NCBI GenBank assembly: GCA_003452965.1
Contig: DMMW01000010.1
Span: forward strand, 1-34,525
DNA: 34,525 nucleotides
DNA from: Elusimicrobiota bacterium
GTDB taxonomy: Bacteria > Elusimicrobiota > UBA8919
Direction: 5' to 3'
Shown here: one piece after another, positions 6,631-34,169 of the stretch
Position numbering within the stretch: the first letter of the stretch is position 1
Layout: each line of letters starts with the position of its first letter
The notes under the pieces: model-generated
Seen by the model: only the letters and a program-made list of their open reading frames with translations
Databases searched by the model: none
What the model was told of the DNA's origin: nothing
Translations under genes and position numbers: made by a program

Positions 6631-7714
6631 ATTGGAACTTAAATATAAACCGGATTTTGATTATGCAAAAGAAATGTGGAATCATTATTGGGCAAAAGAA
6701 GTATTGAAACGTCCGCTTGTGGTTGCCAATGTAGTTAAACAAGAAGGAAAAACTGTTGATAAAGATAAGTATAAGTATTATAATGCATGTACGAAGAATT
6801 ATAGAGAACAACTGACGATAATTGATGAATGGTTGGATAATACGTTATTTCTTGCTGAATCAATTCCGTGTTTTTCTCCAAGTCACGGTCCTGACCAGTT
6901 TGCTGCAATGCTCGGTGCTGATTTAAAATTTTCAGAAAGTAGCAAAACTACGAATTGGGTAGAACCTATAGTAGAAAATTGGGAAGAATTTATCCCGAAG
7001 ATTAAATTAAATGAAAATAATTCCGTCTGGCAAAGTCTTCTGGAATATTCAAAGATTCTTAAAGAACATTCAAAGGGGAAATATCTCGTTGGGATTTGCG
7101 ATTTTTATTCAAATGCCGATATGTTAAGTGCGATTCGGTCTCCGGCTAAATTGTGTATGGATTTTTATGATTATCCCGAATCAATAGCAAAGGCAATGTT
7201 ATCAGTCAGAAAATTATATAAAACGGTATATAATTCTTTATATGAAGCAGGCGGAATGAACAACGAAACCGGTACTATAGGGTGGATTCCTTTTTGGTGT
7301 AAAGATAAATATGCAACGATTCAATGTGATTTTATATGTATGGTATCACCGAAAATTGCAAATGAATATATAATTCCGGCATTAGAGGAAGAGGCGAATT
7401 TTCTTGACCATTGCATCTATCATCTTGACGGTCCCGGAGCATTACCACATCTTGATAATATTCTTGCAATAAAAAAAATTGATGCAATTCAGTGGATACC
7501 CGGTGATGGGCAGCCGCCGCAGTATGAATGGATTGATGTTCTGAAAAAATGCCAGAAAGCTGGTAAGGGACTTCAGATTTTGGATGTCACAAGCATAGAT
7601 ATTATAAAAAAATTCAGCAAAGAACTCAGTCCGGAAGGACTGGTATACTGCATAGACGTAAAGACTGAAAGAGAAGTTGATGAAATAACGACATGGCTTG
7701 AAAAAAACACTTGA
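6617..7714 (+). CDS. Putative URO-D-like (uroporphyrinogen decarboxylase / MtaA-CmuA-like methyltransferase fold) protein.
   Basis: 365 aa. His/Cys cluster DHCIYHLDGPG...IQWIPGDG, and overall length and pattern reminiscent of the URO-D-like superfamily. The assignment comes from recollection of motifs, not an alignment. Confidence 0.4.
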   Translation: MKRSKLELKYKPDFDYAKEMWNHYWAKEVLKRPLVVANVVKQEGKTVDKDKYKYYNACTKNYREQLTIIDEWLDNTLFLAESIPCFSPSHGPDQFAAMLGADLKFSESSKTTNWVEPIVENWEEFIPKIKLNENNSVWQSLLEYSKILKEHSKGKYLVGICDFYSNADMLSAIRSPAKLCMDFYDYPESIAKAMLSVRKLYKTVYNSLYEAGGMNNETGTIGWIPFWCKDKYATIQCDFICMVSPKIANEYIIPALEEEANFLDHCIYHLDGPGALPHLDNILAIKKIDAIQWIPGDGQPPQYEWIDVLKKCQKAGKGLQILDVTSIDIIKKFSKELSPEGLVYCIDVKTEREVDEITTWLEKNT

Positions 7715-7927
7715 AGCTCCATCCCGATAACAATCGGGATTATAACATTTACCATAAGATTTTAAGGAGCGGAATCCGGCCCGTCAAGGCTTCGGCCTTG
7801 GCTGGCTGCAGGATGAAGCTCCATCCCGATAACAATCGGGATTATAACATTTACCATAAGATTTTAAGGAGCGGAATCCGGCCCGTCAAGGCTTCGGCCT
7901 TGGCTGGCTGCAGGATGAAGCTCCATT
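7714..7927. repeat. 102-bp tandem direct repeat (2 full copies + 10 bp), GC-rich. Each unit carries two perfect hairpins: ATCCCGAT-aaca-ATCGGGAT, and CAAGGC-TTCG-GCCTTG with a UUCG-type tetraloop.
   Basis: Read directly: 7714-7815 = 7816-7917, identical. The six-frame 'ORF' 7711..7968 is just this repeat translated. Diverged partial copies of the unit occur at 16358-16415, and a shared ATCCGGCCCG core occurs at 95-104. Confidence 0.9.
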
Positions 7928-8000: not shown

Positions 8001-8954
8001 ATGGATTTTCAAAAACCAAAGGTTGCAATAATCGGTGCAGGAAGTGTCGGTAGTACATTTGCTTTCAGTTTGATGAATAGCGGCCTGTCAAGAGAAATTG
8101 TTCTAATTGATAGGAATGCATTACGTGCAAAAGGTGAATGCATGGATTTGAATCATGGGATAAGTTTCACTCAACCTGCAAAAATTTATTCAGCGGGATA
8201 TGAAGGTTGTGAAAATGCAGATGTTATAGTTATAACGGCAGGAGCTAAACAAATTCCGGGTCAGTCAAGAATAGATTTGGTGCAACAAAATACCGAAATA
8301 TTCAAGGATATAATTCCTAAAATAATAAAATATGCCAAAGATGCGGTAATTTTAGTTGTTTCAAATCCGGTAGATATATTAACATATGTAACTTTGAAAA
8401 TTTCCGGATTTCCTTCAAATAGAGTAATAGGCTCCGGGACTGTCTTGGATACAGCAAGATTCAAATATTTAATTAGTGAACATTGCGGGATAGATTCAAG
8501 AAATATTCATGCTTATGTTATTGGTGAACATGGAGACACAGAACTTCCCGTGTTAAGCAATGCAAACATTGGCGGAATGGTATTGTCAAAATATTGTGCA
8601 ATATGTTCCAGACATTGCGACAATAGTAGGAGCGAATTGGAAAAGATATTCAGTGAGGTTAAAAATGCTGCTTACAAAATAATTGAAGCAAAAGGTGCGA
8701 CCTATTACGCTGTTGCCTTGGCATTAGTCAAGATAACGGGCTCAATATTAAGAAATGAGAATTCTATTTTACCGGTTTCAACTCTAATTAATGATTATTA
8801 CAACATCTCTAATATATGTCTCAGTATTCCGGCTATAGTTAATAAAAACGGTGTTGAAAAATTTTTAAGAATAGAATTATCAGAACAGGAACAAACACAG
8901 CTTAAAAGTTCTGCAGATTCATTAAAAGAAATATTAGAAAAAATTAAGTTCTAA
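8001..8954 (+). CDS. ldh: L-lactate dehydrogenase.
   Basis: KVAIIGAGSVGST NAD motif. AGAKQIPGQSRIDL has the LDH-specific Gln, not the MDH Arg. IGEHGDT catalytic His. Start trimmed to ATG 8001 (7992 is also possible) because the upstream part of the long ORF is the tandem repeat. Confidence 0.85.
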   Translation: MDFQKPKVAIIGAGSVGSTFAFSLMNSGLSREIVLIDRNALRAKGECMDLNHGISFTQPAKIYSAGYEGCENADVIVITAGAKQIPGQSRIDLVQQNTEIFKDIIPKIIKYAKDAVILVVSNPVDILTYVTLKISGFPSNRVIGSGTVLDTARFKYLISEHCGIDSRNIHAYVIGEHGDTELPVLSNANIGGMVLSKYCAICSRHCDNSRSELEKIFSEVKNAAYKIIEAKGATYYAVALALVKITGSILRNENSILPVSTLINDYYNISNICLSIPAIVNKNGVEKFLRIELSEQEQTQLKSSADSLKEILEKIKF

Positions 8955-8964
8955 TTTGTTGTTC

Positions 8965-8993
8965 TTGACATACTTTACGAGACGGTATATAAT
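8965..8993 (+). promoter_or_regulatory. Perfect-consensus sigma70 promoter TTGACA-17 nt-TATAAT, about 60 nt upstream of otsA.
   Basis: Read directly: TTGACA 8965-8970, TATAAT 8988-8993. Confidence 0.6.
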
Positions 8994-9052
8994 TAAAGGT
9001 GTTCCAACCTCTATACTCTATATGCTAATCTCTGTTGTTATTAGGAGGCAAA

Positions 9053-10516
9053 ATGTGGGATAAGAATGTTCTGCAAGATTTAATGAAGGAAAAATTGGCA
9101 AAATATAAATTTATTATAGTTTCCAATAGACAGCCTTATGTTTTTGATTATGTTGGAAGAAAAGTTAAATGTACAAAAACTATAGGTGGTTTGGTAACAG
9201 CAATGGATCCCGTAATGCAGGCCTCAGAAGGTGTATGGGTAGCTGCTTCTTCAGGTGATGCCGATAACAGTGTTATTGACAAAAATAATATTGTAAAAGT
9301 TCCTCCTGAAAAATCTGCATATTCAATGAAATTGATAAATCTAACAAAAAATGAAGAACAAGGTTATTATTACGGTTATTCAAATCAGGCATTATGGCCG
9401 TTAAGTCATATTGCGTATCGTCAGCCCAATTTTATGCATTCCGATTGGGAGACTTATAAAAATGTAAATAAAAGATTTGCAGAAAGTGTTCTGGAATTGT
9501 TTGATGATAAGCAGCCTTTTATTTGGTTACAGGATTATCATTTAACTCTTTGTGCAAAATACATAAAAGAAAAAAAACCGGAAGCGGTGAGTTCCCTTTT
9601 TTGGCATATACCATGGCCAAATCCGGAAGTTTTCAGAGTATGTCCTCAGAAAACTGAAATTTTAGAGGGATTGTTAGCGAATGATTTATTGGGTTTTCAT
9701 ATCAAATATCATTGTCATAATTTTCTTGAAACATGTGAAATTGAATTAGAATCAAAAGTTGACTGGGAAGAATCAGCAGTAACGTATAAGGGACATAAGA
9801 CTTTAATTAAAGATTTTCCTATAAGTGTGGATTTTGAATCATTGTCTGAAATGGCTGGTAGTGCAGATGTTACTAAAAAGGTCGAGGATTTGTCTTTTGA
9901 AATAGACCCTCCGTATGAAATTCTTGCACTGAGTATTGACAGAGTTGATTATACAAAAGGTATAATTGAAAAAATTCGGGCTGTAGATAAATTTTTAGAA
10001 AAATATCCTGAATACCATAAAAAATTCGTTTTTTTTCAAAAGGGTGCGCTTAGCAGATTACATATTAAGGCATATAAGGAATTAATAGATGAAATTCAAG
10101 CGTTGACTGAGGAAATAAACTGGAAATATCGTTCCGGCAATTGGTATCCGATTGTGCTTTTAAACAAGAAAATTGATTATACAACGCATATCGCTTTATA
10201 TCGGGCATGCGATTTGTGTTTGGTAGGTTCTCTTCATGATGGAATGAATTTGGTTGCAAAAGAATTTATCTCTGCTAATGTTGATATAAAAGGCATTCTA
10301 ATGTTATCAAAATTCACAGGTGCCGCTAGGGAACTGAAAGATGCTGTTCTGGTAAATCCGTACGATACCGAAGGTTTTGCTGATGCTATAAAAATGGCGA
10401 TTGAAATTCCGCCCAATGAAAAAAAGGAACAGATAAAAAGGATGCGCGAACATATTCAAGAAAACAATATTTATAAGTGGGCTGGCAAGTTTATAAGCAC
10501 ATTAATAAAAATATAA
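9053..10516 (+). CDS. otsA: Trehalose-6-phosphate synthase (GT20, OtsA family).
   Basis: GT20 motifs: SNRQPY, GGLVTA, LWPLSHIAYRQ, WLQDYHLTL, FWHIPWP, GFHIKYHCHNF. Start at ATG 9053 with SD AGGAGG 4 nt upstream. Confidence 0.9.
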   Translation: MWDKNVLQDLMKEKLAKYKFIIVSNRQPYVFDYVGRKVKCTKTIGGLVTAMDPVMQASEGVWVAASSGDADNSVIDKNNIVKVPPEKSAYSMKLINLTKNEEQGYYYGYSNQALWPLSHIAYRQPNFMHSDWETYKNVNKRFAESVLELFDDKQPFIWLQDYHLTLCAKYIKEKKPEAVSSLFWHIPWPNPEVFRVCPQKTEILEGLLANDLLGFHIKYHCHNFLETCEIELESKVDWEESAVTYKGHKTLIKDFPISVDFESLSEMAGSADVTKKVEDLSFEIDPPYEILALSIDRVDYTKGIIEKIRAVDKFLEKYPEYHKKFVFFQKGALSRLHIKAYKELIDEIQALTEEINWKYRSGNWYPIVLLNKKIDYTTHIALYRACDLCLVGSLHDGMNLVAKEFISANVDIKGILMLSKFTGAARELKDAVLVNPYDTEGFADAIKMAIEIPPNEKKEQIKRMREHIQENNIYKWAGKFISTLIKI

Positions 10517-10536: not shown

Positions 10537-12009
10537 ATGATTAAATTAATAAAAAAAATGTCTTTTAAATTAAAATTGATTATAATTATTTCTTTTATAA
10601 ATATTTTGGTTATATCTATTATTTCATATATAAGCATGCTCCACATGGAAAGAAGTTTAAAAGAGAGAATGGAATTAAGAACCAAGGTGATTGTTGATGT
10701 AATAGTACATAGCATTGATGACGAGACAAAATTAAAACGAGAGGTAATAGAAGAATATTCTAACTTTATTATCAATGAACGGGAGATACAATATATAGCA
10801 TTTTTTGATAAAAGAAATAATTTAATAAGTATAGCCGGTGAACGTGGAAAAACTGAAATTAAATTTGTTACAGAAAATATATTTGATATGCAAGATAATA
10901 TATACGATGTTTACGGGGAGATAATAGGAAAAAATAAAATAAAAATAGGTTCTATAATAGTAGGATTCCCGATTACAAAGCTGAAGCAGGCAATTAATAA
11001 AGGAGTAGTAACAAGTATAATATTATGGTTAATAGCTATCGTCGTGATAATGATTTTTAATTATTCAAGTTTAACATATTTTTTACGACCTATCAGAGAT
11101 TTATTTCGTGCAGCTGAATGTGTTTCCAAAAGGGACTTTAATTGCAAGATACCTGTTTATAATGCTGATGAAATCGGAAAAATATCAGAACAATTTAATC
11201 TTATGATAGTTGAATTAGAATCTTTTTATAATTCACTTGAGGAAAAAGTTAAAATAGCAACTAATGGATTAGAAGCATCAAATGAAAAATTAAAAGAGAA
11301 AACAAAAGAGTTGGAAGAAATGGATAAAAGGAAAACAGAGTTTGTTTCCATTGTCGCCCATGATTTAAGGTCGCCTCTTACTTCAATGATGGGTTTTGCG
11401 GATACATTAAACAATGAAAATTTAAATTTAAGCGAACAAGACAAAAAAAGATATATAAATATAATACGCACTGAAACGCGGCGACTATCAAAGCTAATTT
11501 CAAATTTCCTTGATATATCTTTAATTGAAGAAAACAAAATTGTTATGGATGCTGAAAAAACAGATTTAGAAGAATTAATTAATGATGTGCTTAATTCTAT
11601 GAGCGAAAACATAATAAAAGGGATAAGAATATCGCTTGAAGTTGGAGAAGATATTCCTCAAATTTATATGGACAGAGATAGAATAATTCAAGTTTTACAG
11701 AATCTCATTATCAATGCATTAAAATATTCACCTGAGATGTCTGAGATTAAAATTATAGCCAAAAGGTTTCCCGATGAAGTAAGGATAAGTGTAATAGACC
11801 AAGGTCCTGGAATACCGGACAGGCAAAAAGAAAAAATATTTAATAAATTTAGCAAATTGAGTGAACAAAAAGCAAAAAAGGAGTCTGGAATAGGTTTAGG
11901 ATTGTTCATAGCAAAATCTATTGTTAATCTGCATGGTGGCAAAATATGGGTTGAAGATGCTGAAAATAAAGGCAGTAATTTTTCATTTACATTGCCAATA
12001 AAGGAATAA
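10537..12009 (+). CDS. Membrane sensor histidine kinase (2 TM, HAMP, HisKA, HATPase_c). No response regulator adjacent.
   Basis: H-box VAHDLRSPLTSM, N-box NLIINALKYS, G1 DQGPGIP, G2 GIGLGLFIAKSIVNLHGG. Start chosen at ATG 10537 so it does not overlap otsA. 10558 is an alternative. Confidence 0.8.
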   Translation: MIKLIKKMSFKLKLIIIISFINILVISIISYISMLHMERSLKERMELRTKVIVDVIVHSIDDETKLKREVIEEYSNFIINEREIQYIAFFDKRNNLISIAGERGKTEIKFVTENIFDMQDNIYDVYGEIIGKNKIKIGSIIVGFPITKLKQAINKGVVTSIILWLIAIVVIMIFNYSSLTYFLRPIRDLFRAAECVSKRDFNCKIPVYNADEIGKISEQFNLMIVELESFYNSLEEKVKIATNGLEASNEKLKEKTKELEEMDKRKTEFVSIVAHDLRSPLTSMMGFADTLNNENLNLSEQDKKRYINIIRTETRRLSKLISNFLDISLIEENKIVMDAEKTDLEELINDVLNSMSENIIKGIRISLEVGEDIPQIYMDRDRIIQVLQNLIINALKYSPEMSEIKIIAKRFPDEVRISVIDQGPGIPDRQKEKIFNKFSKLSEQKAKKESGIGLGLFIAKSIVNLHGGKIWVEDAENKGSNFSFTLPIKE

Positions 12010-12013
12010 AGTA

Positions 12014-13417
12014 GTGTTTAGAAAATATTTTCCGAAAGAAATAAAAATAAAACAAAGAGTTTTTGAACAGAGTATTCTAATAGCAAGTATCGTAAAATGG
12101 ACTTTATTGGCGATAATAATAGGAACTGTTGTAGGATTTTCTACCGGACTATTTTTATTTTCTTTGGATATTACAATTAGTTTTTTTAATAGATTTAATT
12201 ATTATTTTTTTATTTTACCAATAATTATTTTACTTATTGCCATAACAATAAGGAATATTTCTCCTGAATCGGAGGGACATGGCACAGAAAAAGTTATAGA
12301 ATCTATTCATAAAACACACGGACAAATTTCTTGGAAGGTTATACCCATCAAAGCCATAACTTCGATTCTTACTATTACTTTCGGAGGTTCGGTAGGTAAG
12401 GAAGGCCCTTGCGCACAGATAGGGGGTGGAATAGCTTCTTTATTCTCAAACATTTTAAAATTTCATCCAATTGACCGTAAAAAACTTGTAATTTGTGGAA
12501 TAAGTGCCGGTTTTGCTGCCGTTTTTGGAACTCCTATTGCTGGTGCGCTTTTCGGTGTTGAGGTTTTGTTCATAGGACAGATTTTTTATGAAGTATTATA
12601 TCCGTCTTTCATTGCTGGAATTGTGGGTTTTCAAACCTGCAGATTATTCGGTATAACATATTTCACACATCCGATAAATCTTGTCCCTAAATTTACTGAT
12701 TTATTTTTATTAAAAGTAGTTGCTTTTTCAATTCTTATTGGTTTGGTTGCATATTTATTCATTGAGACATTAAATTTCACCCATAAAAAGTTCAAAAAGA
12801 TTCCTTATAAAAAGAGAGCTATATTAGGTGGTTTATTAGTTGTATTTATTGTACAGGTTACTTCTCGGAGATATCTTGGACTTGGATTGGATACTATAGC
12901 GCAAGCTATCAATGGTGAACATATACCTAAACTTGCTTTTTTGTGGAAGACAATAGTAACATCTATTACATTGTCATGTGGCGGTAGTGGTGGGATTGTG
13001 ACTCCTATTTTTTACGTAGGTGCTGCAAGCGGGAACTTGTTTGCAAGGATATTTAATTTTGATTTAGGTACATTTTCAGCAATTGGTATGACATCTCTTC
13101 TTGCTGCCTGCACAAATACACCAATTGCCTCATCAGTTATGGCGATAGAGTTATTTGGACCCAAAGTGGGTATTTATTCTGCGATTTGTTCAATTATTAG
13201 TTTTACTATAGTTGGCTACAGGTCTGTATATCCAAGCCAAATATTAGGTGTTCTAAAAAGCCAGAGTTTCAAGGTGGAATTAAATAAAGAAATTAAGGAT
13301 GTAGAAAGCACGGAACAATTCAAGATGTTTTCACAACGAAATACATTAACACATATTATAATATCAATATATTTAAAGATAAAAAAATGTAGATTATTCA
13401 TGAAAAAAAAGAAATGA
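12014..13417 (+). CDS. ClC-family voltage-gated chloride channel / H+-Cl- antiporter.
   Basis: GSVGKEGP and GFAAVFGTPIAGALFGVE selectivity-filter motifs. Many TM segments. GTG start with AAGGA upstream. Its stop overlaps the ATG of the otsB 5' duplicate (ATGA). Confidence 0.8.
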   Translation: MFRKYFPKEIKIKQRVFEQSILIASIVKWTLLAIIIGTVVGFSTGLFLFSLDITISFFNRFNYYFFILPIIILLIAITIRNISPESEGHGTEKVIESIHKTHGQISWKVIPIKAITSILTITFGGSVGKEGPCAQIGGGIASLFSNILKFHPIDRKKLVICGISAGFAAVFGTPIAGALFGVEVLFIGQIFYEVLYPSFIAGIVGFQTCRLFGITYFTHPINLVPKFTDLFLLKVVAFSILIGLVAYLFIETLNFTHKKFKKIPYKKRAILGGLLVVFIVQVTSRRYLGLGLDTIAQAINGEHIPKLAFLWKTIVTSITLSCGGSGGIVTPIFYVGAASGNLFARIFNFDLGTFSAIGMTSLLAACTNTPIASSVMAIELFGPKVGIYSAICSIISFTIVGYRSVYPSQILGVLKSQSFKVELNKEIKDVESTEQFKMFSQRNTLTHIIISIYLKIKKCRLFMKKKK

Positions 13418-13479
13418 AATATTTTTTTAAAGAATTAGGAAAAATAAAAGGGTACAAAATATTAAGAAAATTATGAAAA
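13414..13479 (+). pseudogene. Duplicated 5' end of otsB (first ~14 codons, then diverged and closed by a stop).
   Basis: 13414-13451 is identical to 13703-13740 (ATGAAATATTTTTTTAAAGAATTAGGAAAAATAAA). Similarity continues with a 12-nt deletion. Confidence 0.6.
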
Positions 13480-13507
13480 ATCATGGTTTTTCACTAGACG
13501 CGATATT

Positions 13508-13531
13508 TTCATCAAGGCATGCCTTGATGAA
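13508..13531. promoter_or_regulatory. 24-bp perfect palindrome TTCATCAAGGCA|TGCCTTGATGAA inside the ~225-bp insert between the otsB 5' duplicate and otsB. Candidate dimeric-regulator operator or hairpin.
   Basis: Read directly and checked base by base. Confidence 0.5.
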
Positions 13532-13702
13532 CGGCTCAAAAAACACTAAAATTTCAAAACTCACTTGCTATGCTCGTTCAGACAGTTGAAATTTTTTAAC
13601 GGTTTTTTATCGCCTAAATATCGCTATATCGTTCAAAACCAGATTTTTCGATAATGTAATTATTCTTGAAAGATGTGAATTATTTTTTAAAAAAAATAAA
13701 AA

Positions 13703-14473
13703 ATGAAATATTTTTTTAAAGAATTAGGAAAAATAAAGAAAAAAATAAAAGGATATAAAATATTACTCTGCCTGGATTATGATGGTACTCTAACCCCCAT
13801 AGTTAAAAAGCCAGAATATGCCAAACTCGGGCAAAACATTAAGCATGCTTTAGAAAACATTAAAAGTAATAAAAATATTATATTGGCTATAATATCAGGC
13901 AGGACTTTATCAGGAATAAAAAAATTAGTCAATCTTAGAAATGTTATTTATGCAGGCAATCACGGTTTTGAAATAGAGATAGGCAGGGATGTTTTTATCC
14001 ATCGGGGACTCAAGGAAGCTATTCCGATAATCAGCAAAATAAAAAAAGCGATAAGTAAAAAAATAAAAGGAATACGGGGTGCATTTATTGAGGATAAAGA
14101 ATTTACATTAAGCATTCATTGGCGGTTGGTCAAAAAAAAATATTTAAATAAGTTGTTTCTAATAATTAAAAATATTATACATAATAATAGTAAAATAAGA
14201 TTAACCATAGGTAAAAAGGTATGGGAAATCAGGCCTAATATTGCTTGGGATAAGGGTAAAGCCGTTGAATTAATATATTCAAAAGTAAATAAAAATAATA
14301 ATTTAAAAATCATATATATAGGTGATGATACAACTGATGAAGATGCTTTCTCGGTATTGAAAAAAGAAATAACAATAAAAATCGGTAAATCAAATAAGTC
14401 AAAAGCAAAATATTATTTAAAAAAACAATCAGAAATAAAAAATATTCTCAATTTATTGAGTAATATAGGCTGA
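13703..14473 (+). CDS. otsB: Trehalose-6-phosphate phosphatase (HAD superfamily, OtsB).
   Basis: HAD motif I LDYDGTL. Motifs III/IV KG...IYIGDDTTDEDAF. 256 aa. Confidence 0.85.
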   Translation: MKYFFKELGKIKKKIKGYKILLCLDYDGTLTPIVKKPEYAKLGQNIKHALENIKSNKNIILAIISGRTLSGIKKLVNLRNVIYAGNHGFEIEIGRDVFIHRGLKEAIPIISKIKKAISKKIKGIRGAFIEDKEFTLSIHWRLVKKKYLNKLFLIIKNIIHNNSKIRLTIGKKVWEIRPNIAWDKGKAVELIYSKVNKNNNLKIIYIGDDTTDEDAFSVLKKEITIKIGKSNKSKAKYYLKKQSEIKNILNLLSNIG

Positions 14474-26847: not shown

Positions 26848-27238
26848 GGGGGCTGGGACTATGCTCTTGACTTTTTATTGTAGTATGTCCCCCAAGGTCC
26901 ATAGTAAACAACGAATGGTATTTTGGGGAATACAATACCTAAATAACGTCAAAAAAAATGAAAAATCAATGAAAACACAACTAATTGCTGAAGCAAACGT
27001 ATGGTGGAAATTTGGTAAAAACTTTTCTTACATATCAAAAGAATTACAAAGGAATTGACCCTACCCCATTAAATTTTACTAATACTAAATCCTATCTAAA
27101 AATTACTTGACAATTTATGAATATTATTATAAGACATATATGTAATATAAATGATAGTATACACGGTAAATGCGAGCAAATAATAGCATACTCATAAGTA
27201 TCCTACTCGTGAGTATTCTAACTAAAAGGGTGCGGTTT

Positions 27239-27574
27239 ATGGAGCATAAATTCATAAATAGAAAATCTGAAATTGATTCATTAGAAAAAAAGTGGGAAGA
27301 GAAAAAAAGCCACTTGATTATTGTTTACGGCAAAAGGCGTGTAGGTAAAACGGAAATCATAAAACAGTTTATTAAAAATAAACCCTCTGTATATTTCTTG
27401 GCTGACAAACGGACTATAAACGAACAACTCAAAGAATTAGGCAGGTTATTCGGCGCTCATTTCAAAGATGCCCTACTTGAAAAGAACGGATTTACCGACG
27501 ATATGCTGAAACTGGCGAAACAAGAACGTGTTTACTTAGTCAACAAGAACGAATTGATTGAGATGCAAGAGTAA
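27239..27574 (+). pseudogene. N-terminal Walker-A fragment of an archaeal-type ATPase (PF01637 ATPase_2 / DUF234-associated), ending prematurely.
   Basis: FINRKSEIDSLEKKW...LIIVYGKRRVGKTEIIKQF is the canonical N-terminus of ~450-aa ATPases. Here the ORF stops at 111 aa. Confidence 0.5.
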
Positions 27575-27666
27575 TAAGACAGTATAGGTCGCGACAGAGC
27601 AACAGTTTATAAGTTAAAGATTGATTCGTTGCATTAGTATTTAAAGAAATTGGACGAGCTGACGAG

Positions 27667-27891
27667 ATGGGGTCGGGTGTCAGGAAACTCTATAAATATT
27701 GTAAAATCAACTCGGGATTAAATCCCCAGTTGATAGAAGAGGATATATTTAAAATTATTATTCCATTAGATGAGCAAGTTGGTGAGCAAGTCCTAAAGAT
27801 ACTTAAATACTGTAAAATCTCAAGAAAGAAGCAAGAAATATCCGATATGTTATATCCCGACGAAGGAACGGAAATCTTTCACTTTATATGA
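27667..27891 (+). pseudogene. Short ORF (74 aa), possibly a remnant of the C-terminal region of the same truncated ATPase gene.
   Basis: Its position right after the ATPase fragment is the only support. No motif recognised. Confidence 0.2.
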
Positions 27892-27960
27892 TAAAAGATG
27901 AAAAACCAAAAAGACCCCGTTCCTTGATTTTTCACTGTAAAAGAGTATAATCAAATCATT

Positions 27961-29436
27961 ATGAAAAAGTATAAAATATTCGTGAGTGGTGTGCAGAAAG
28001 AACTCAAAGCAGAACGCCGGGCAGTGAAAGATTCGATTCTCGGTGATGTCTTGCTCTCCGAGTATTTTGACGTTTTCTTGTTTGAAGATTCACCGGCTAA
28101 AAGCCATTCAGCAGAAAAGGCATATCTTGAAGAAGTCCGTAAAGGCAATATCTATATCAGCATTCTTGGCGATAAATACGGCAGCACGGGCAAGAATAAA
28201 ATTTCTCCTACCGAAGCAGAATTTCGGGAAGCAAAAACCAAGCATAAAGACATTTTAATTTATATAAAAGGTGAAAACTCCGTTGATAAAAACCGTGAAG
28301 CAGGCGTACAGAAACTTATTAAGGAGATTAAAGATTCCAAGGTGGGTTATTGTTATCGCAGATTTAATTCCATCAGCGAATTAACCAACCTTGTTTATGA
28401 AAGTTTGATTGTCTTTTTAAAAGAGAAAGGAGAAGTCGGCAGAGCCGTATTTGACCAGCGGATATGCGACAGTGCGACTTTCTCCGATATTGACGATGAA
28501 AAAGTTAAGTGGTTTTTAAAAACAGCACGAGCCAAACGGAATTTTCCACTTGCTCTTGATTCTTCAACACAAGATGTTTTTACTCATCTAAAACTTTTGA
28601 AAGACGGCAAATTGACCAACGCCGCAGTTTTATTATTCGGCAAAGAACCGAGAAAGTTTTTTGACCAGGCAAAAATCAAATGTATTCATCTGCCAAGTAC
28701 CGAAGTAGAGAAACCGTTCACATCATATCAAATTTACGAAGGGAATTTATTTGAGCAGGTGGACAAGGCAGTTAGTTTTGTATTTGATATACTCAAATTC
28801 CCTGTTATTCAGCAGGAACATACTGTCCAGGTATCTCGGCCCCGTGAAATTCCAGTATTCGTGGTTCAGGAAGCCATCGTCAACGCAGTTGCTCACCGCG
28901 ACTATAACACGACGTCCTCTGTTCAGGTAATGGTATTTCTTGACCGAGTGGAAATATGGAATTCTGGGACTTTACCAGCCCACTTAAAAATAGAAGACCT
29001 CAAAAAACCACACGCATCTCACCCGACAAATACTTTATTAGCCACAGTAATGTTTTTTGCCGATTACATTCAACAAGCAGGTTCGGGAACATTGGAGATG
29101 CTCAAACAGTGTAAGGCAAAGGGACTTCCCGAGCCGGACTTCGTATCAGTGCGGAATCTTGAATTCAAAACAATATTAGCCAGAGATATTTTTACGGAAG
29201 AGGTCTTAAATAAACTGGGATTGAATGAACGCCAGTTAAAAGCAGTAAAATATGTAAAAGAAAAAGGCAGAATAACGAATAAAGAATATCAGTTAAATTT
29301 TGGTGTTAAGAAAAGACAAGCAACAGATGATTTAAAAGATTTAGAAAATAAAGAGGTCTTAATTAAGATTGGATCTACTGGAAGGGGAACATATTACAAG
29401 GTTAATGGGGCGATAATGGGGCGAAAGGGGCAATAA
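27961..29436 (+). CDS. DUF4062 - AlbA_2/Schlafen-like - HATPase_c_4-like (RecG-C-terminal-like) three-domain protein. Candidate defence or regulatory protein.
   Basis: N-terminus KIFVSGVQKELKAERRAV...YLEEVRKGNIYISILGDKYGS fits the DUF4062 pattern (xFxSS..L..ER......P..FE......YG). Middle region KVKWFLKTARAKRNFPLALD...AAVLLFGKEP is Schlafen/AlbA_2-like. C-terminal region AIVNAVAHRDY...IWNSGTLP...QAGSGTLEM matches the HATPase_c_4 family. Domain assignments come from memory of the family consensus. Confidence 0.65.
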   Translation: MKKYKIFVSGVQKELKAERRAVKDSILGDVLLSEYFDVFLFEDSPAKSHSAEKAYLEEVRKGNIYISILGDKYGSTGKNKISPTEAEFREAKTKHKDILIYIKGENSVDKNREAGVQKLIKEIKDSKVGYCYRRFNSISELTNLVYESLIVFLKEKGEVGRAVFDQRICDSATFSDIDDEKVKWFLKTARAKRNFPLALDSSTQDVFTHLKLLKDGKLTNAAVLLFGKEPRKFFDQAKIKCIHLPSTEVEKPFTSYQIYEGNLFEQVDKAVSFVFDILKFPVIQQEHTVQVSRPREIPVFVVQEAIVNAVAHRDYNTTSSVQVMVFLDRVEIWNSGTLPAHLKIEDLKKPHASHPTNTLLATVMFFADYIQQAGSGTLEMLKQCKAKGLPEPDFVSVRNLEFKTILARDIFTEEVLNKLGLNERQLKAVKYVKEKGRITNKEYQLNFGVKKRQATDDLKDLENKEVLIKIGSTGRGTYYKVNGAIMGRKGQ

Positions 29437-29455
29437 AGGGGCGATAATGGGGCAG
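29404..29455 (+). repeat. Five evenly spaced GGGG tracts (loops 7, 5, 7, 7 nt) inside a degenerate ~11-bp tandem repeat (TAATGGGGCGA)x5. Canonical G-quadruplex-forming motif on the coding strand, spanning the last 11 codons and stop of the DUF4062 gene.
   Basis: Read directly: GGGG at 29407, 29418, 29427, 29438 and 29449. Confidence 0.7.
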
Positions 29456-29697: not shown

Positions 29698-29866
29698 TGA
29701 CCCCACCCCCGAAAACTGTACCAGTTGAAATTAGAGTTTAGAAATGGTAAACTAAACTCATGGGGGTATGGTTATGAAACAGGGCAGGTACAAGGAAGAG
29801 CAGATTATCGGGATATTGAAGGAAGCAGAAGCCGGCATAAAGATAGATAAATTATGCCGTAAATAA
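29698..29866 (+). mobile_element. Remnant of an IS3-family (IS407-group-like) insertion sequence: a putative left inverted repeat (TGACCCCACCCCCGAAAACTG...) plus the first 30 codons of orfA (HTH transposase_8), truncated.
   Basis: 29774-29866 translates to MKQGRYKEEQIIGILKEAEAGIKIDKLCRK*, which matches the N-terminus of IS407-like OrfA (MKKRFT-EEQIIGFLKEAEAG-P-KELCRKHG...). It has an SD-like GGGGGT and an upstream TGA...CCCC terminus typical of IS3 IRs. Confidence 0.55.
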
Positions 29867-29881
29867 GGATTAAATGAGATT

Positions 29882-32800
29882 ATGAGCAATCAATTTATAA
29901 CTAATCAGGAAAAACTACTGTCGGAAGTAATAAATAATATTCTCCCATCCACACAAAAGTTAAATATCTTGGTTGGATATTTTTATTTTTCCGGATTCCA
30001 GGAAATTTATAAAAATATAGCAGATAAAGAAGTTAAAATCCTCATTGGTTTAGATATTGAAAAAGATATTTTAAACAAAGTCAAAGAATTTGAACTAATT
30101 CAATCTATAAATCTTTCCCGAAGTCAAGTAAGAGATAATTTCAATAAATCGTTTATCCAATTATTTAACGATTCAGATTATTTTGATATTGAAGAAAAAC
30201 AAGAGGCATTCCGAATATTTCTTGAAAAAATTATAAACAAAACACTTGAAATTAGAAAAACCGTCCAACAAAACCATGCAAAATTATATGTTTTTGAAAA
30301 CAAGCCGGAACATAATCAGAACGGTGAATTCTTAGGAACAATAATTACCGGTTCAAGCAACTTAACCCGTTCAGGATTAAAAGGACAGCGTGAAATAAAT
30401 GTTATATTTCGTGACAATGGCAATTACGAGGAAGCACTCAAAATATTCAACGAACTTTGGAAGGATGAAAACTCGGTAGAAATAGTCGGTAAAACTACAA
30501 CGGACAGTTTTCTTATCGAAATAATAGAAAAAATCTGGATTGATAAACTTTACGATCCATATTTATTATATATTCGTGTCTTGGAAGAATATTTTTCATT
30601 TACTAAGAAAGAAGGTATCATTCTTCCTTCCGAAATTACAAAAAATAAATTCATGAATCTTAAATATCAGAATGACGCTATTTCGCAATCAATAGAAATT
30701 CTTAACCGGCACAACGGCGTTATCATTGCGGATGTTGTTGGATTGGGAAAAAGTATTATTGCTTCTGCAGTAGCCCATAACATGGGATTACGAACAATAA
30801 TTATCTCACCACCGCATCTAATAGGGCAATGGGATGATTATCATATTGATTTTGGATTTAACGCTAAAATATTCAGCAGCGGTAAAATACAGGAAGCATT
30901 AGAATATGATTTTGCATATAATGAGCCAAAATTAATTATTATAGATGAATCGCATAAATATCGCAACGAACTAAACATTGACTACGGATATTTACATCAA
31001 CTATGCCAGGGAAACAAAGTAATTTTATTAACCGCTACGCCATTTAACAACCAACCGCAGGACATATTTTCAATGATAAGATTATTTCAAATACCTGCTA
31101 GGTCCACAATACAAACAGTAGATAATTTATCATACAGATTTAAAGAACTTATCAAGGAATATAAAGAAATAAAAAAATCACAAATACAAAAAAAGTCGGA
31201 TATGAAAGATGAAATTAAAATATTGGCACAAAAAATCCGTGATATACTTGCTCCATTGGTTATTCGTCGGTCAAGATTGGACTTGGAAAAAATTAATGAA
31301 TACCGAGAAGACCTTAAAAAACAAGGGATATCATTTCCTGAAGTTAAAGATCCTACAATTTTAGACTATCCGCTTGGAAAACTTAGTATACTTTACGAAA
31401 AAACTCTTGAAAAAATTGTATCCACGGAAGACGAATCACAGGGCTTCATGGGAACAAGATATAAACCGACAAATTATCTTAAAGAAGAACACAAAAAACA
31501 AGTTGCTGATGAATTAGGTGTAAAAGAAGATTTACTTGTACAGGTACAAATAAACCTGTCAAAATTTATGCGTCGCCTATTAGTCAGGCGTTTTGAAAGC
31601 TCGGTAAAAGCATTTCACGATTCCTTGAACTCACTAATAAAATCATCCGAATACATGCGTGATTGGTATAATAAATTTGAGAGTGTTCCAATATACAAAA
31701 AAGGTGATTTGCCGGACATAGAAATCCTTGAACAATCCACCAGTGAAGATTTAGATGAAGAACTCCAGCAGATTACATTTGACGAGCAACTAAAAAAATA
31801 TTATGACAAAGGACTTAAAATAATAAAAAAAGAATGGCTAAAAGACACTTTCATTAAAGACATTGAAAAAGACATAAAACTACTAAAAGAAATACGTGCA
31901 GAATGGTTTAAAGACGGCATCAAACACGACCCGAAATTAGAATGTTTTGAAAAAGAAATAAAGCAACAACTAAAAAAAGAACCCAACAGAAAAATAGTTG
32001 TATTTACCGAATTTTCAGATACAGCAAACTATCTATACGAAAAACTCAAAAACAAATTGAAAATATTTAAATATACCTCCGCGGACTCAAGTGAAACCAA
32101 CAAAAAAATAATCAAAGAAAACTTTGATGCCGGTAATCCTATACAAAAAGACGACTACGACATTCTTATTGCTACCGATGCAATTTCAGAAGGCTTTAAC
32201 CTTCACAAAGCAGGTATTATATTCAACTATGACATCCCATACAACCCGACAAGAGTAATACAACGGGTAGGACGTATAAACCGCATAAACAAAAAAGTAT
32301 TTAATGAACTTTACATCTATAATTTCTTTCCAACGGCTACCGGTGAAGCAGAAACACGGATAAAAAAGATATCTACATTAAAAATTTCATTATTTAATGC
32401 TTTACTTGGTACCGACATAAAAGTATTAACCTCGGATGAAGAATTGGAATCCTATTACAAAAATGAATTTATAAAATCAATGGCAAATCAAGAAGAACTA
32501 TCATGGGATGTAAAATATCGCAATGAACTTGGAATATTGAAAAATAAACATCCAGATATATTACAAAAGGCAATGGCAGTTCCCCATCGTGCCCGCATTA
32601 GAAGAACAGAAAAGAAAGATACAGCTGGAGTCATTGTATTTGCGCGAAAAGGGAAAGAATACACGTTCAAACTTGGCATTTCAAAGGAAGATTATACAAC
32701 ATTAGGTCCTGAAACTGCACTAAAACTATTTGAATCAGAAATAACCGAAAAATCGGAAAAAATAAGTAAAAACTTTGAACCGATATACCAGCATGTAAAA

Positions 32801-33121
32801 AACAACCTATTCAACAAAAAAACCCAGGTATCTTTTGATAAAGGAAAAACCGAATCAATAAACAAATTAGAAGTATTACAAGAAAAGATTCCAGATAAAA
32901 AGGACTATTTCAACGATTTAAAATATATAATAAAAGAACTGGATGCATTACCTGAAAGATATGCTAAACAAATCCGTCAAATATCAGAAAAATCCCTTAA
33001 AAAAGATGTTGAAGAACTGCAAAAAGATGTATCGCAGAAATACTTAATAGAAATCATAGAAAAAGCACGAAGAATAGAAGATGAAGCAGAAAGCTTAATA
33101 CTCACAGAAGAACTGATATAA
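29882..33121 (+). CDS. Fusion protein: N-terminal PLD-family (HKD) nuclease domain + SNF2/Rad54-like SF2 helicase/translocase.
   Basis: HKD motif NHAKLYVFEN...GSSNLTRSG. SNF2 motifs: I DVVGLGKS, II IIIDESHKYRN, III LLTATPFNNQPQDIFSMIRLF, V LIATDAISEGFNLH, VI QRVGRINRINKK. Confidence 0.8.
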   Translation: MSNQFITNQEKLLSEVINNILPSTQKLNILVGYFYFSGFQEIYKNIADKEVKILIGLDIEKDILNKVKEFELIQSINLSRSQVRDNFNKSFIQLFNDSDYFDIEEKQEAFRIFLEKIINKTLEIRKTVQQNHAKLYVFENKPEHNQNGEFLGTIITGSSNLTRSGLKGQREINVIFRDNGNYEEALKIFNELWKDENSVEIVGKTTTDSFLIEIIEKIWIDKLYDPYLLYIRVLEEYFSFTKKEGIILPSEITKNKFMNLKYQNDAISQSIEILNRHNGVIIADVVGLGKSIIASAVAHNMGLRTIIISPPHLIGQWDDYHIDFGFNAKIFSSGKIQEALEYDFAYNEPKLIIIDESHKYRNELNIDYGYLHQLCQGNKVILLTATPFNNQPQDIFSMIRLFQIPARSTIQTVDNLSYRFKELIKEYKEIKKSQIQKKSDMKDEIKILAQKIRDILAPLVIRRSRLDLEKINEYREDLKKQGISFPEVKDPTILDYPLGKLSILYEKTLEKIVSTEDESQGFMGTRYKPTNYLKEEHKKQVADELGVKEDLLVQVQINLSKFMRRLLVRRFESSVKAFHDSLNSLIKSSEYMRDWYNKFESVPIYKKGDLPDIEILEQSTSEDLDEELQQITFDEQLKKYYDKGLKIIKKEWLKDTFIKDIEKDIKLLKEIRAEWFKDGIKHDPKLECFEKEIKQQLKKEPNRKIVVFTEFSDTANYLYEKLKNKLKIFKYTSADSSETNKKIIKENFDAGNPIQKDDYDILIATDAISEGFNLHKAGIIFNYDIPYNPTRVIQRVGRINRINKKVFNELYIYNFFPTATGEAETRIKKISTLKISLFNALLGTDIKVLTSDEELESYYKNEFIKSMANQEELSWDVKYRNELGILKNKHPDILQKAMAVPHRARIRRTEKKDTAGVIVFARKGKEYTFKLGISKEDYTTLGPETALKLFESEITEKSEKISKNFEPIYQHVKNNLFNKKTQVSFDKGKTESINKLEVLQEKIPDKKDYFNDLKYIIKELDALPERYAKQIRQISEKSLKKDVEELQKDVSQKYLIEIIEKARRIEDEAESLILTEELI

Positions 33122-33134
33122 TGAAGTATAATTT

Positions 33135-34169
33135 ATGAGTGAAAATCGTATCGTTTTAGACAAAACTTATTTGAATTTCTTAAACGAAATCAAACACAAA
33201 ATTGCTTCTGCAAGAATACAAGCAAGTCGGCATTTAAATAAGGAATTGATAGAACTTTACTGGGATATCGGAAAAACAATTATTGAGAAACAAAAGCAAT
33301 ATGGATGGGGACAAAGTATCGTTGAAAAATTAGCCAATGATTTGCAAAATGGATTTCCTAATTTGCGGGGATACTCAAGTCGTAATCTATGGGATATGAG
33401 AAGATTTTATGATACATATAAAGATTCATCAATTCTGCGACAGCTTGTCGCAGAAATACCATGGGGACACAACCTAATGATTATAAACAAAATATCCAAC
33501 ATGAAAGAACGAGAATATTATATTAAATCATCGCGTGATATGGGTTGGTCCAGGAACGTACTTCTGAATCAAATTAAAGCCGGAGCATATCAATTAAGTT
33601 TAAGAAAAAAACAACACAACTTTGAAAAAGCTTTACCTGTACATCTTTCAGAACAAGCGGATGAATCACTTAAAAGTGTTTATAGCCTGGATTTTCTCGG
33701 AATAACAAGACCAGTATTAGAAAGAGAGCTTGAAAAACGGCTTATTGAAAAAATTAAACATTTTCTGCTTGAACTTGGTTCGGGGTTTTCATTCATCGGC
33801 AATCAGTATCGGCTTGAATTAGACGGCACTGAATATTTTGTTGATTTGTTATTTTTTAACCGTAAAATTAAATGTCTCGTTGCCGTTGAACTTAAAACAG
33901 GTAAATTTCAGCCCGAATATGCCGGAAAAATGGATTTTTATCTACATCTACTAAACGAACAGACCCGCCTGAAAGATGAAAACCCGCCGATAGGAATTAT
34001 TCTTTGTGCCGATAAAAGTAATATAACCGTTGAATACGCTTTAAGAAGCGTTAAAAATCCTATGGGTGTATCACAATACAATTTAACAACAAAACTTCCC
34101 GCTGAACTTAAAAAAGTTTTACCGTCGGAAAAGGAAATGAAGAATCAACTTTTAGAAGAAATTAAGTGA
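33135..34169 (+). CDS. DUF1016 / YhcG-family PD-(D/E)xK nuclease-fold protein.
   Basis: N-terminal DUF1016_N-like region (LYWDIGKTIIEKQKQYGWGQSIVEKLANDL...). C-terminal PD-(D/E)xK core: D (YFVDLLFF), ELK (AVELKTGKF). Lies 13 nt after the PLD-SNF2 gene. Confidence 0.7.
   Translation: MSENRIVLDKTYLNFLNEIKHKIASARIQASRHLNKELIELYWDIGKTIIEKQKQYGWGQSIVEKLANDLQNGFPNLRGYSSRNLWDMRRFYDTYKDSSILRQLVAEIPWGHNLMIINKISNMKEREYYIKSSRDMGWSRNVLLNQIKAGAYQLSLRKKQHNFEKALPVHLSEQADESLKSVYSLDFLGITRPVLERELEKRLIEKIKHFLLELGSGFSFIGNQYRLELDGTEYFVDLLFFNRKIKCLVAVELKTGKFQPEYAGKMDFYLHLLNEQTRLKDENPPIGIILCADKSNITVEYALRSVKNPMGVSQYNLTTKLPAELKKVLPSEKEMKNQLLEEIK

Follow-up and report, generated by a model that had tools for sequence, protein, structure and literature searches.

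Introduction

The pair formed by a Schlafen (SLFN) domain and a GHKL ATPase was named 'Schlatpase' in the work on the SLFN-prokaryotic Argonaute system (SLFN-pAgo), which counted 60,692 such prokaryotic proteins; the majority are small and have a helix-turn-helix (HTH) at the C-terminus. Slfn–HisKinase (34%) and Slfn–HisKinase–HTH (19%) are also the commonest architectures of bacterial Schlafens (Nature Microbiology, PMC13056530). In SLFN-pAgo, PF13749 proved to be a genuine GHKL ATPase, whose residues E314 and N318 coordinate Mg and the gamma-phosphate; ATP binding leads to tetramerisation, by which the active Schlafen nuclease is assembled, and E314A severely diminishes protection. Here we analyse a gene that carries a DUF4062 domain upstream of an ATPase of this type. 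It lies in a contig of an Elusimicrobiota bacterium (UBA8919; GenBank assembly GCA_003452965.1, contig DMMW01000010.1, positions 1 to 34,525 of the forward strand); the window means this whole stretch of 34,525 nucleotides.

DUF4062, renamed NIR, is a TIR-like NADase that yields ADP-ribose and nicotinamide and executes abortive infection; the anti-phage systems known to carry it are Swarozyc, Evangelion, Avs2, Vulcan and Vesta (bioRxiv 10.64898/2026.05.01.722283, 10.64898/2026.06.25.731849, 10.64898/2026.09.04.749371). According to the same three preprints, Swarozyc is activated by the phage portal, the phage terminase is apparently the trigger of Avs2 with DUF4062 (their co-expression is toxic), and catalytic-glutamate mutants of PsAvs2, Vulcan and VstA lose defence; the DUF4062 of human TEP1 is also active, its E1008A mutant having been assayed for NADase only. 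The texts of these preprints make no mention of a GHKL, HATPase or Schlafen-type fusion, and the one Swarozyc preprint supplement that was searched contains no HATPase, PF13749, AlbA or GHKL. The protein of the window is a new variant uniting these two recently characterised modules of known defence proteins. On balance we slightly favour the view that it is a stand-alone anti-phage protein of the abortive-infection type, with an NADase head, a GHKL oligomerisation switch and a winged HTH (wHTH) that would sit on iterons at the 3' end of its own gene.

A DUF4062 head on a GHKL ATPase and winged-helix chassis

The open reading frame (ORF) is intact, and its product, hereafter the query, is identical to a hypothetical protein of the metagenome-assembled genome Elusimicrobia bacterium RIFOXYC2_FULL_34_12. 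The search for homologues returned more than 4,400 of them; among the 120 matches listed, identity ranges from 66 to 100% and the hosts are Elusimicrobiota, Omnitrophota and Poribacteria. No NCBIfam model matches the 491-aa protein, and Pfam, PADLOC and NCBIfam reveal no STAND or repeat domain in it. A preliminary description of the locus had read the protein as a trio of DUF4062, a Schlafen/AlbA_2 nucleic-acid-binding region and HATPase_c_4. The outer two members of this trio stand: Pfam matches DUF4062 (PF13271) at aa 5-91 (E 5.8e-18, 65.3 bits against a cutoff of 24.7) and HATPase_c_4 (PF13749) at aa 319-402 (E 1.2e-17), the latter match covering only the C-terminal third of the ATPase module. 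The central member has to be given up, as SLFN_AlbA_2 (PF04326) shows no Pfam match, even when the middle segment alone is searched at E<=10, and hhalign against the AlbA_2 alignment returns a probability of 0.4% for aa 156-300 and 0.1% for the N-domain. Neither the wHTH at the C-terminus nor the array of repeats around the stop codon figured in that outline. Read from the sequence, the real architecture is DUF4062, GHKL ATPase and winged HTH (domain limits in Table 1).

The relatives that align only from query aa ~130 onwards account for the absence of the Schlafen domain. They are canonical proteins with SLFN_AlbA_2 (aa ~9-125), HATPase_c_4 and HTH; in one of them, P0126, AlbA_2 ends at aa 113, and aa 103-443 are 49% identical to query aa 132-479 (BLASTP, E 1e-119). 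Since the AlbA_2 domain of these relatives precedes the region aligned to query aa 132-479, DUF4062 occupies the AlbA_2 slot, and the 'middle region' of the query is the N-terminal half of an ATPase module common to all family members. In other words, the two kinds of protein share a GHKL-ATPase/winged-helix chassis on which DUF4062 has, to judge from the alignments, replaced the Schlafen head.

An exhaustive HMMER search gave 11,641 cluster representatives at E<=1e-3, and the heads of the 150 best were classified with family-specific profiles. Around 93 of them are DUF4062+GHKL and around 26 AlbA_2+GHKL, in addition to tandem double proteins and a giant of 2,918 aa. One family member has an N-terminal TIR_2, and the SIR2-headed 'Aga' models of PADLOC match the same ATPase region of the query. 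In a neighbour-joining tree of the GHKL domains, mostly-DUF4062 and mostly-AlbA_2 clades are separated with some intermixing, and the AlbA_2 proteins P0126 and P0121 form the sister group of the query clade; the tree is only suggestive because it lacks support values. The intermixing of head types points to a repeated exchange of predicted toxic heads on one GHKL chassis, which is typical of immune systems.

Four tandem fusions (P0121, P0143, P0169 and P0227) were also noted. Two are [DUF4062–GHKL]x2, one is TIR_2–GHKL–DUF4062–GHKL–HTH, and one, of 2,918 aa, has two AlbA_2–GHKL–HTH units and extra HTH copies.

The ATPase module of the query has the features of the Bergerat fold, namely an N-box (ExxxN) and glycine-rich G-boxes with the ATP lid. 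Residue conservation was assessed in an alignment of 25 full-length homologues, down to 30% identity, where E304 (codon 28870-28872), N308 (codon 28882-28884), A309, H312, R313, R329, G336, G374 and G376 are invariant; the same set is at least 90% conserved over the 150 representatives, with both head types. By its motif, the pair E304/N308 is probably equivalent to the Mg-ATP pair E314/N318 of RzAgo. In line with this family assignment, aa ~161-409 match only the non-Argonaute parts of the pAgo-associated models of PADLOC (aa 163-409 for the pAgo model).

The head can be compared directly with a characterised system. HMMER against PDB sequences aligns query aa 2-179 to the TIR/DUF4062 domain of KpSwz (10wc, 11cq, 11cv; E 1e-3), and E87 falls opposite the alanine of the KpSwz E97A construct, the numbering offset having been verified with R18 and D71. 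E87 (codon 28219-28221), within S82-P-T84-E85-A-E87-F88, is the catalytic-equivalent glutamate, and E87-F88 corresponds to the catalytic glutamates of KpSwz (E97), Eva01 (E87-Y88) and PsAvs2 (E108). The invariant head residues in the 25 homologues are F7, S9, E14, E18, R19, Y65, Y73, S82, E87 and R112, of which F7 may be the counterpart of the conserved N-terminal aromatic residue F11 of Eva01.

The fold of the head matches TIR domains, nucleoside 2-deoxyribosyltransferase (NDT), YtoQ and the CMP N-glycosidase BcmB, the first two as anticipated by the preliminary description, which had rightly taken DUF4062 for a TIR/NDT-like Rossmannoid domain found at the N-termini of STAND proteins. This breadth allows another reading, in which the head is some other N-glycosidase (a nucleotide or CMP hydrolase, or a 2'-deoxyribosyltransferase-like enzyme) or a TIR-like enzyme that generates a signal, using another substrate or serving a separate effector. 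The fold fits NDT, YtoQ and BcmB as well as it fits TIRs, the DUF4062 of Avs2 was originally annotated as a CMP hydrolase, and the Q/W/E motif of the characterised NADases Swarozyc and Evangelion is not evident in the query, which has 'KSHS' opposite the 'EQWE' of KpSwz; at this position its subfamily conserves F41-E42-x-x-P45. We nevertheless regard this reading as unlikely. Among the DUF4062 domains assayed so far for activity or for NAD+ depletion in cells, those of KpSwz, PsAvs2, Vulcan, VstA, Eva01 and human TEP1 all deplete or hydrolyse NAD(P)+ through the same glutamate (human NWD1, NWD2 and NPHP3, also assayed, are outside this list), and over the homologous loci examined there is no conserved partner gene that could read a signal.

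A repeat array at the 3' end of the gene

The stop codon of the gene (TAA, 29434-29436) lies inside an array of five direct repeats with units TAATGGGGCGA, GAAAGGGGCAA and TAAAGGGGCGA. Their GGGGC cores begin at 29407, 29418, 29427, 29438 and 29449, giving a spacing of 11-9-11-11 nt, and Tandem Repeats Finder (TRF) reports a period of 11, 4.8 copies and a score of 74. Within the window, the motif WAAWGGGGCR is confined to the array (4 occurrences, 0.72 expected), and the array is identical in 5 strain variants.

The homologous loci have the same type of array in the same place with unrelated units, for example AAAGGGGCGCC, AAAGGGGACAT, TAAAGGGCTCA and GCCTCATAA; further locus-specific units are GTAATGAAAAG, TTGCACGATT, AATGCGCACTA and AACCCGACA. 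Such arrays, straddling or following the stop codon, were seen among loci L001-L063, L075 and L082. In 18 of 22 loci, TRF finds an array of period 11 with at least 3 copies between positions -95 and +60 relative to the stop, compared with 19 elsewhere in 361 kb. A detector based on the most frequent 7-mer was swamped by A-rich words and was replaced by a spacing-constrained chain statistic, by which chains of at least 4 units occur at 30 of 44 gene ends and in 6 of 300 control windows. At least 12 loci share the 11-9-11-11 spacing itself, although their units are unrelated in sequence. Arrays are also present in AlbA_2-headed relatives (L020b, L031, L032, L053, L075 and L082), including an archaeal one and ones on viral contigs. 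We found no mention of 3' repeat arrays in the Schlafen or DUF4062 papers.

We considered two trivial explanations of the array and rejected them. It does not simply code for a Lys/Gly tail: 3 does not divide its period, and at several loci (L009, L019, L029, L051 and L032) the whole array comes after the stop codon. For the same two reasons, the array must act at the nucleic-acid level. It is not an intrinsic terminator either, having no inverted repeat and no T-tract. The arrays have an iteron- or centromere-like pattern: at least 3 direct repeats at helical-turn spacing, beside the gene of a putative binder, and conserved across homologues.

The putative binder is the wHTH, and its recognition helix (aa 449-461, VKKRQATDDLKDL, nt 29305-29343) pairs one-to-one with the repeat core across loci. 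The helix KKRQ[AS]TDD goes with the core AA(A/T)GGGGCG at 5 loci, TKRTASRD with AAAGGGGAC at 3, SPRxAxxD with GCRCGAT at 3, SNQTFVRDM with ATGTCAC at 3, SNKTAY[FY]D with GTAATGAAA at 2 and KRRLASYE with AATGCGCAC at 2, while SKATATR[DE] goes with GG(G)CTCA / GGACTC at 4 DUF4062 loci and in the AlbA_2 gene of L020. A Mantel test of helix against core gives r = 0.31, reached in 0 of 5000 permutations, and the core distance averages 0.33 where helices are near-identical and 2.09 where they are unrelated. Two relatives are telling in this respect: over aa 1-410 the query is 96% identical to L021 and 93% to L022, whereas its wHTH is 48% and 36% identical to theirs, and their arrays differ from that of the window. 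Since these proteins are near-identical up to aa 410 and differ in helices and arrays, wHTH and array are exchanged as a unit.

Locus L020 has two genes of the family, one DUF4062-headed (8001-9485) and one AlbA_2-headed with GHKL and wHTH (11573-12889). Their helices differ, and so do their arrays, GGGGACA for the former and GGCTCA for the latter.

A wHTH with matched repeats could also belong to an ordinary HTH transcriptional regulator, with GHKL and DUF4062 as ligand sensors and the array as operator. This is how the source annotation (JGI, NCBI) has it, 'predicted HTH transcriptional regulator', and both the wHTH, of a sequence-specific type, and the direct repeats matched to it would suit such a role. 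We find it very unlikely, given that the sites are found where the gene ends rather than at a promoter, that the window has no copies elsewhere, that the catalytic glutamate and the ATPase residues are invariant, that the head is interchanged with toxic effectors (Schlafen tRNase, TIR_2, SIR2), and that there is no conserved regulon or downstream gene.

We also looked for phage-borne decoy arrays with the two-unit pattern AAAGGGGCRNNAAAGGGGCR. This candidate was dropped, the pattern being too short to be informative: it occurs in at least 120 viral contigs, and among the 80 loci examined almost all are two-copy sites after terminators, with a weak match to the wHTH profile upstream in 1 of the 80 and matches to the GHKL profile in none. 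At least 120 IMG/VR contigs (L100-L179) contain the pair AAAGGGGCA-N2-AAAGGGGCA, mostly right behind a hairpin that resembles a terminator and close to the end of a contig or prophage. These pairs have no relation to GHKL–wHTH genes; a gut-phage group may use them as recombinase or repressor sites.

Genomic contexts of the homologues

The homologues are mostly found beside type I, III and IIG restriction-modification (R-M) genes, RadC, integrases and other defence genes. In L002-4, on an integrase island, the gene separates mod from res of a type III R-M system; in L011 and L019 it is adjoined by RadC, type I R-M and a KAP NTPase; in L009 it is surrounded by an integrase, SIR2_2, PLD-SNF2 and an MmeI-like enzyme; and in L005-8 it is on an XRE/resolvase island. 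Within three ORFs of the gene at 14 further GTDB loci, we found HsdR/HsdS at 4 loci, RadC at 3, integrases at 2 and a second DUF4062 gene at 2, with ResIII and SoFic also among the commonest neighbours. Members of the family are carried, too, by Legionella conjugative plasmids (40-43% identity) and by some viral contigs. The preliminary description had thought a defence or sensor role plausible. This proposal gains support from the DUF4062 NADase literature and from these neighbourhoods, which are overwhelmingly R-M, integrase and defence contexts and not repair operons.

Some arrangements deserve separate mention. The AlbA_2–GHKL gene of L020 is on the same island as its DUF4062 counterpart. 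It is flanked by N6_N4_Mtase genes on one side and a short ResIII fragment on the other, which resembles the mod-res slot of the DUF4062 copy in L002. In three unrelated contexts, the start codon of the DUF4062–GHKL gene comes 2-6 nt after the end of a small XRE/HTH_3 gene of 69-78 aa (L005:7786-7995, L019:7763-7999, L020:7787-7999). This small gene is absent from the window; in some lineages it may act as a transcriptional controller. The homologues on plasmids of a cultured organism, Legionella pneumophila (L072:5001-6572 and L073:987-2498), annotated as 'ATP-binding protein', are directly downstream of a ParB-family gene, in the replication/partition region of the plasmid. They have an in-frame (TGQV)n linker, of 9 and 4 copies, before a C-terminus of the Fic-like_C type, and no 3' array.

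Tandem direct repeats of 11-12 bp bound cooperatively by an adjacent small protein are a hallmark of plasmid centromeres, as in ParR–parC and in TubR–tubC, where the binder is a wHTH protein. The genes studied here could accordingly be addiction or maintenance modules of mobile elements: the array DNA would be the 'antitoxin', and loss or degradation of the element's DNA would free the NADase and cause post-segregational killing. The resemblance of the wHTH–array pair to such centromere or incompatibility determinants, the diversification of both specificities as one module, again like incompatibility determinants, the integrase or resolvase islands, and the ParB genes directly adjoining the Legionella plasmid homologues are all consistent with this. 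However, the Legionella copies belong to the array-less class, the array-bearing loci have no linked partition NTPase, many loci are chromosomal and beside R-M systems, and DUF4062 and Schlafen effectors have demonstrated anti-phage roles. We hold an addiction or maintenance function to be improbable, and we keep to anti-phage defence as the preferred reading.

The locus in the window

The gene follows housekeeping genes, a glucan phosphorylase and a pyruvate kinase, and its GC content is 0.39 against 0.333 in the flanks. An Rfam scan of the window gave no match. A sigma-70-like site at 27924-27951 was discarded as promoter because such sites occur at chance level (10 found, 10.7 expected). 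The features of the locus are collected in Table 1.

Table 1. Features of the DUF4062–GHKL–wHTH locus and its neighbours (coordinates in the window)
Feature	Position	Strand	Evidence or detail
Truncated N-terminal fragment (134 aa), ATPase_2 / PDC-S27-type	27170..27574	+	Pfam ATPase_2 1-68 of 225; PADLOC PDC-S27 1-78 of 474
Remnant, last ~45 residues of another PF13749-type GHKL	27631..27762	+	In 74-aa ORF 27667-27891
Complete DUF4062–GHKL–wHTH gene, 491 aa	27961..29436	+	ORF list
DUF4062/NIR TIR-like domain, predicted NADase effector (aa 1-155)	27961..28425	+	Pfam, PDB sequence match, conservation
GHKL (Bergerat-fold) ATPase module (aa ~160-410)	28438..29190	+	N-box E304/N308, D328-R-x-E-x-x-N334-x-G336, G374-S-G376
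C-terminal winged helix-turn-helix (aa ~420-482)	29218..29406	+	
Five direct repeats, putative wHTH iterons	29403..29453	+	Units TAATGGGGCGA / GAAAGGGGCAA / TAAAGGGGCGA
IS3-family OrfA (HTH_Tnp_1) remnant, junction of variable downstream cassette	29774..29866	+	Pfam E 1.9e-5
PLD-SNF2	29882-33121		Pfam
DUF1016/YhcG nuclease	33135-34169		Pfam

Pfam and PADLOC confirm the surroundings that had been noted from the outset, a truncated ATPase, an insertion-sequence remnant and a PLD-SNF2 gene. The ATPase_2 fragment, which retains the first ~100 residues of such an ATPase, is a decayed neighbour outside the system. The second upstream remnant was recognised with the family GHKL profile (hmmsearch, profile positions 202-246, E 4e-5) and by BLASTP against query aa 373-433 (E 0.01). 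The two remnants indicate gene turnover at the site and suggest that defence genes have been repeatedly replaced downstream of pyruvate kinase.

Downstream, the population of the window has two sets of genes: PLD-SNF2, DUF1016 and an MmeI-like gene on the one hand, and an intact IS3 with a HinP1I R-M system on the other. The latter set is found in the strain variant L015 (at 11814-14227), whose DUF4062–GHKL–wHTH gene is identical and where IS3 and HinP1I R-M, followed by pyrimidine/purine biosynthesis genes, replace the PLD-SNF2 cassette; beyond 29818, a position within the IS3 remnant, the two variants are no longer identical. As the gene is identical in a strain that has no PLD-SNF2, the latter is a neighbour in a variable hotspot, not a functional partner.

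The PLD-SNF2 gene (1079-1120 aa) is followed by an MmeI-like type IIG/IIL methyltransferase-nuclease of ~1,120-1,180 aa in two Elusimicrobia contexts, one beyond the right end of the window (L014:16606-19974) and one in L009 (13643-17452). In the strain of the window, the DUF1016/YhcG nuclease is inserted between the two genes. PLD-SNF2 and the MmeI-like enzyme may thus be a conserved candidate system of their own. The window has other tandem repeats at 2094-2243, 7712-7926 and 1365-1443; their types are a heptamer CAGGATA x21, a perfect 102-nt unit x2.1 and two adjacent 9-nt arrays.

A proposed mode of action

The elements described above can be assembled into a model of a stand-alone defence protein. 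The DUF4062/NIR head would be the effector and deplete NAD+, and the GHKL module would be a nucleotide-dependent oligomerisation switch that makes the TIR-like heads join or leave an active assembly; for both the NADase chemistry and ATP-driven oligomerisation as the means of activation, we extrapolate from the literature on the related systems. The wHTH would recognise the ~five 11-nt iterons across its own stop codon, and we infer from the pairing of helix and core that it binds the array at 29403-29453. Being translated last, it could bind the array by its own stop codon and load in cis, forming a helically phased complex of ~five units. Such a complex might store the protein in a latent form, act as a scaffold for its pre-assembly or allow autoregulation, and on infection the array-bound state would be released or rearranged. 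Candidate triggers are degradation or damage of host DNA, DNA-mimic anti-restriction proteins, and changes in ATP or nucleotides. The second is proposed because of the embedding in R-M loci and by analogy with PrrC, and the frequency of this embedding in R-M operons suggests that the protein might have a PrrC-like role as 'R-M guard'.

Several observations weigh against this model. Neither of the two Schlafen–HisKinase constructs assayed in E. coli protected it against the panel used (PMC13056530), the homologue of L001 is found among housekeeping genes, and the Q/W/E motif, discussed above, is not evident in this subfamily. Relatives with a Fic-like_C-type C-terminus, including those of the Legionella plasmids, have no arrays, which means that the array is not essential to the DUF4062–GHKL core. 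Five sites hold only few protomers, so that sequestration would require very low expression. The array could be bound as RNA rather than DNA, or by another factor. Finally, the helix and the array are ~60-150 nt apart, and because of this their co-variation could be pure physical linkage; the stronger functional arguments are the persistence of the array architecture and the homogeneity of units within each array, across proteins 25-35% identical.

A broader proposal is that 3' iterons are a general component of the wHTH-bearing branch of Schlafen/NIR–GHKL proteins, with the effector loaded in cis on a DNA scaffold in its own gene, latent or pre-assembled, and triggered by loss of, damage to or competition for this DNA. 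We advance it tentatively, as a possibility that is more doubtful than the defence role itself. If true, it would define a 'DNA-as-antitoxin' or 'DNA-scaffolded' immune sensor, whose orthogonality is kept by exchanging wHTH and array together. The array may also explain why the Schlafen–HisKinase constructs lacked defence once moved to E. coli.

The implications of the head swap are wider. The GHKL–wHTH chassis would be an effector-agnostic platform for a Schlafen tRNase, a DUF4062 NADase, TIR_2 or SIR2, which supports the idea that the abundant 'COG2865 transcriptional regulators' are immune proteins and links the 2026 work on NIR/DUF4062 NADases with that on bacterial Schlafens. The stop-codon array provides a testable handle on control and sensing in the wider Schlafen/NIR–GHKL–HTH family, and the natural chimeras formed by the gene of the window and those of L021 and L022 are ready-made specificity swaps.

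Comparison with known systems

Swarozyc, Evangelion, NIR-Avs2, Vulcan and Vesta share with the query an N-terminal DUF4062, a catalytic glutamate (by alignment in the query) that is part of an E-[YF] motif and, probably, the conservation of a phenylalanine near the N-terminus. Like the query, they are found in defence islands or mobile elements, mostly as single genes (Vesta has two), and the C-terminus is presumed to be the sensor. This is where they differ. The portal-binding AUX domain and the helical stalk of KpSwz are not in the query, the similarity stopping at aa ~180; its C-terminus is also unlike that of Vulcan (HEAT repeats), Avs2 (STAND-TPR) or Eva01 (a short AUX). Compared with NIR-Avs and other STAND NTPases, it has neither the central STAND (NACHT/NB-ARC) NTPase nor C-terminal repeats. 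The C-terminal part of the query is predicted to combine an ATPase switch with a DNA-binding domain.

Other likenesses concern the array and the genomic context. R1 ParR–parC (11-bp) and TubR–tubC (12-bp) have direct repeats at helical-turn spacing near the gene of a sequence-specific binder, and the specificities co-diversify; the same holds for the query and its putative binder. Unlike in these partition systems, a partition NTPase is absent, the array extends over the 3' end of the putative binder's own ORF, and the binder is fused to a predicted toxic enzyme and an ATPase. With the anticodon nucleases PrrC and RloC, the family of the query shares the placement of a latent suicide effector in or beside R-M genes, which suggests, by analogy, that the effector is activated once restriction has been subverted. 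In sequence and fold the protein is unrelated to them, and the R-M-like cassette adjacent to the gene in the window varies between strains.

The GHKL module leads to the closest systems. SLFN-pAgo (RzAgo) and the query have homologous GHKL domains, and the latent state of SLFN-pAgo is a filament bound to nucleic acid. The query differs in having no Argonaute core or guide and another effector, and its putative mode of recognition is a wHTH on fixed double-stranded DNA repeats. Its nearest relatives are the Schlatpase or pSlfn–HisKinase–HTH proteins (SLFN_AlbA_2 and PF13749, with or without HTH; COG2865), of which DIP2311 (PDB 3lmm) is the solved example. In place of their Schlafen tRNase head, with its Ex4(E/D)xK motif, the query has the TIR-like DUF4062 domain, and because of this swap its predicted toxicity is NAD+ depletion, not tRNA cleavage. 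Seen in this light, the protein of the window is the predicted NADase counterpart of the very common Schlafen–GHKL–HTH proteins, with the effector swapped.

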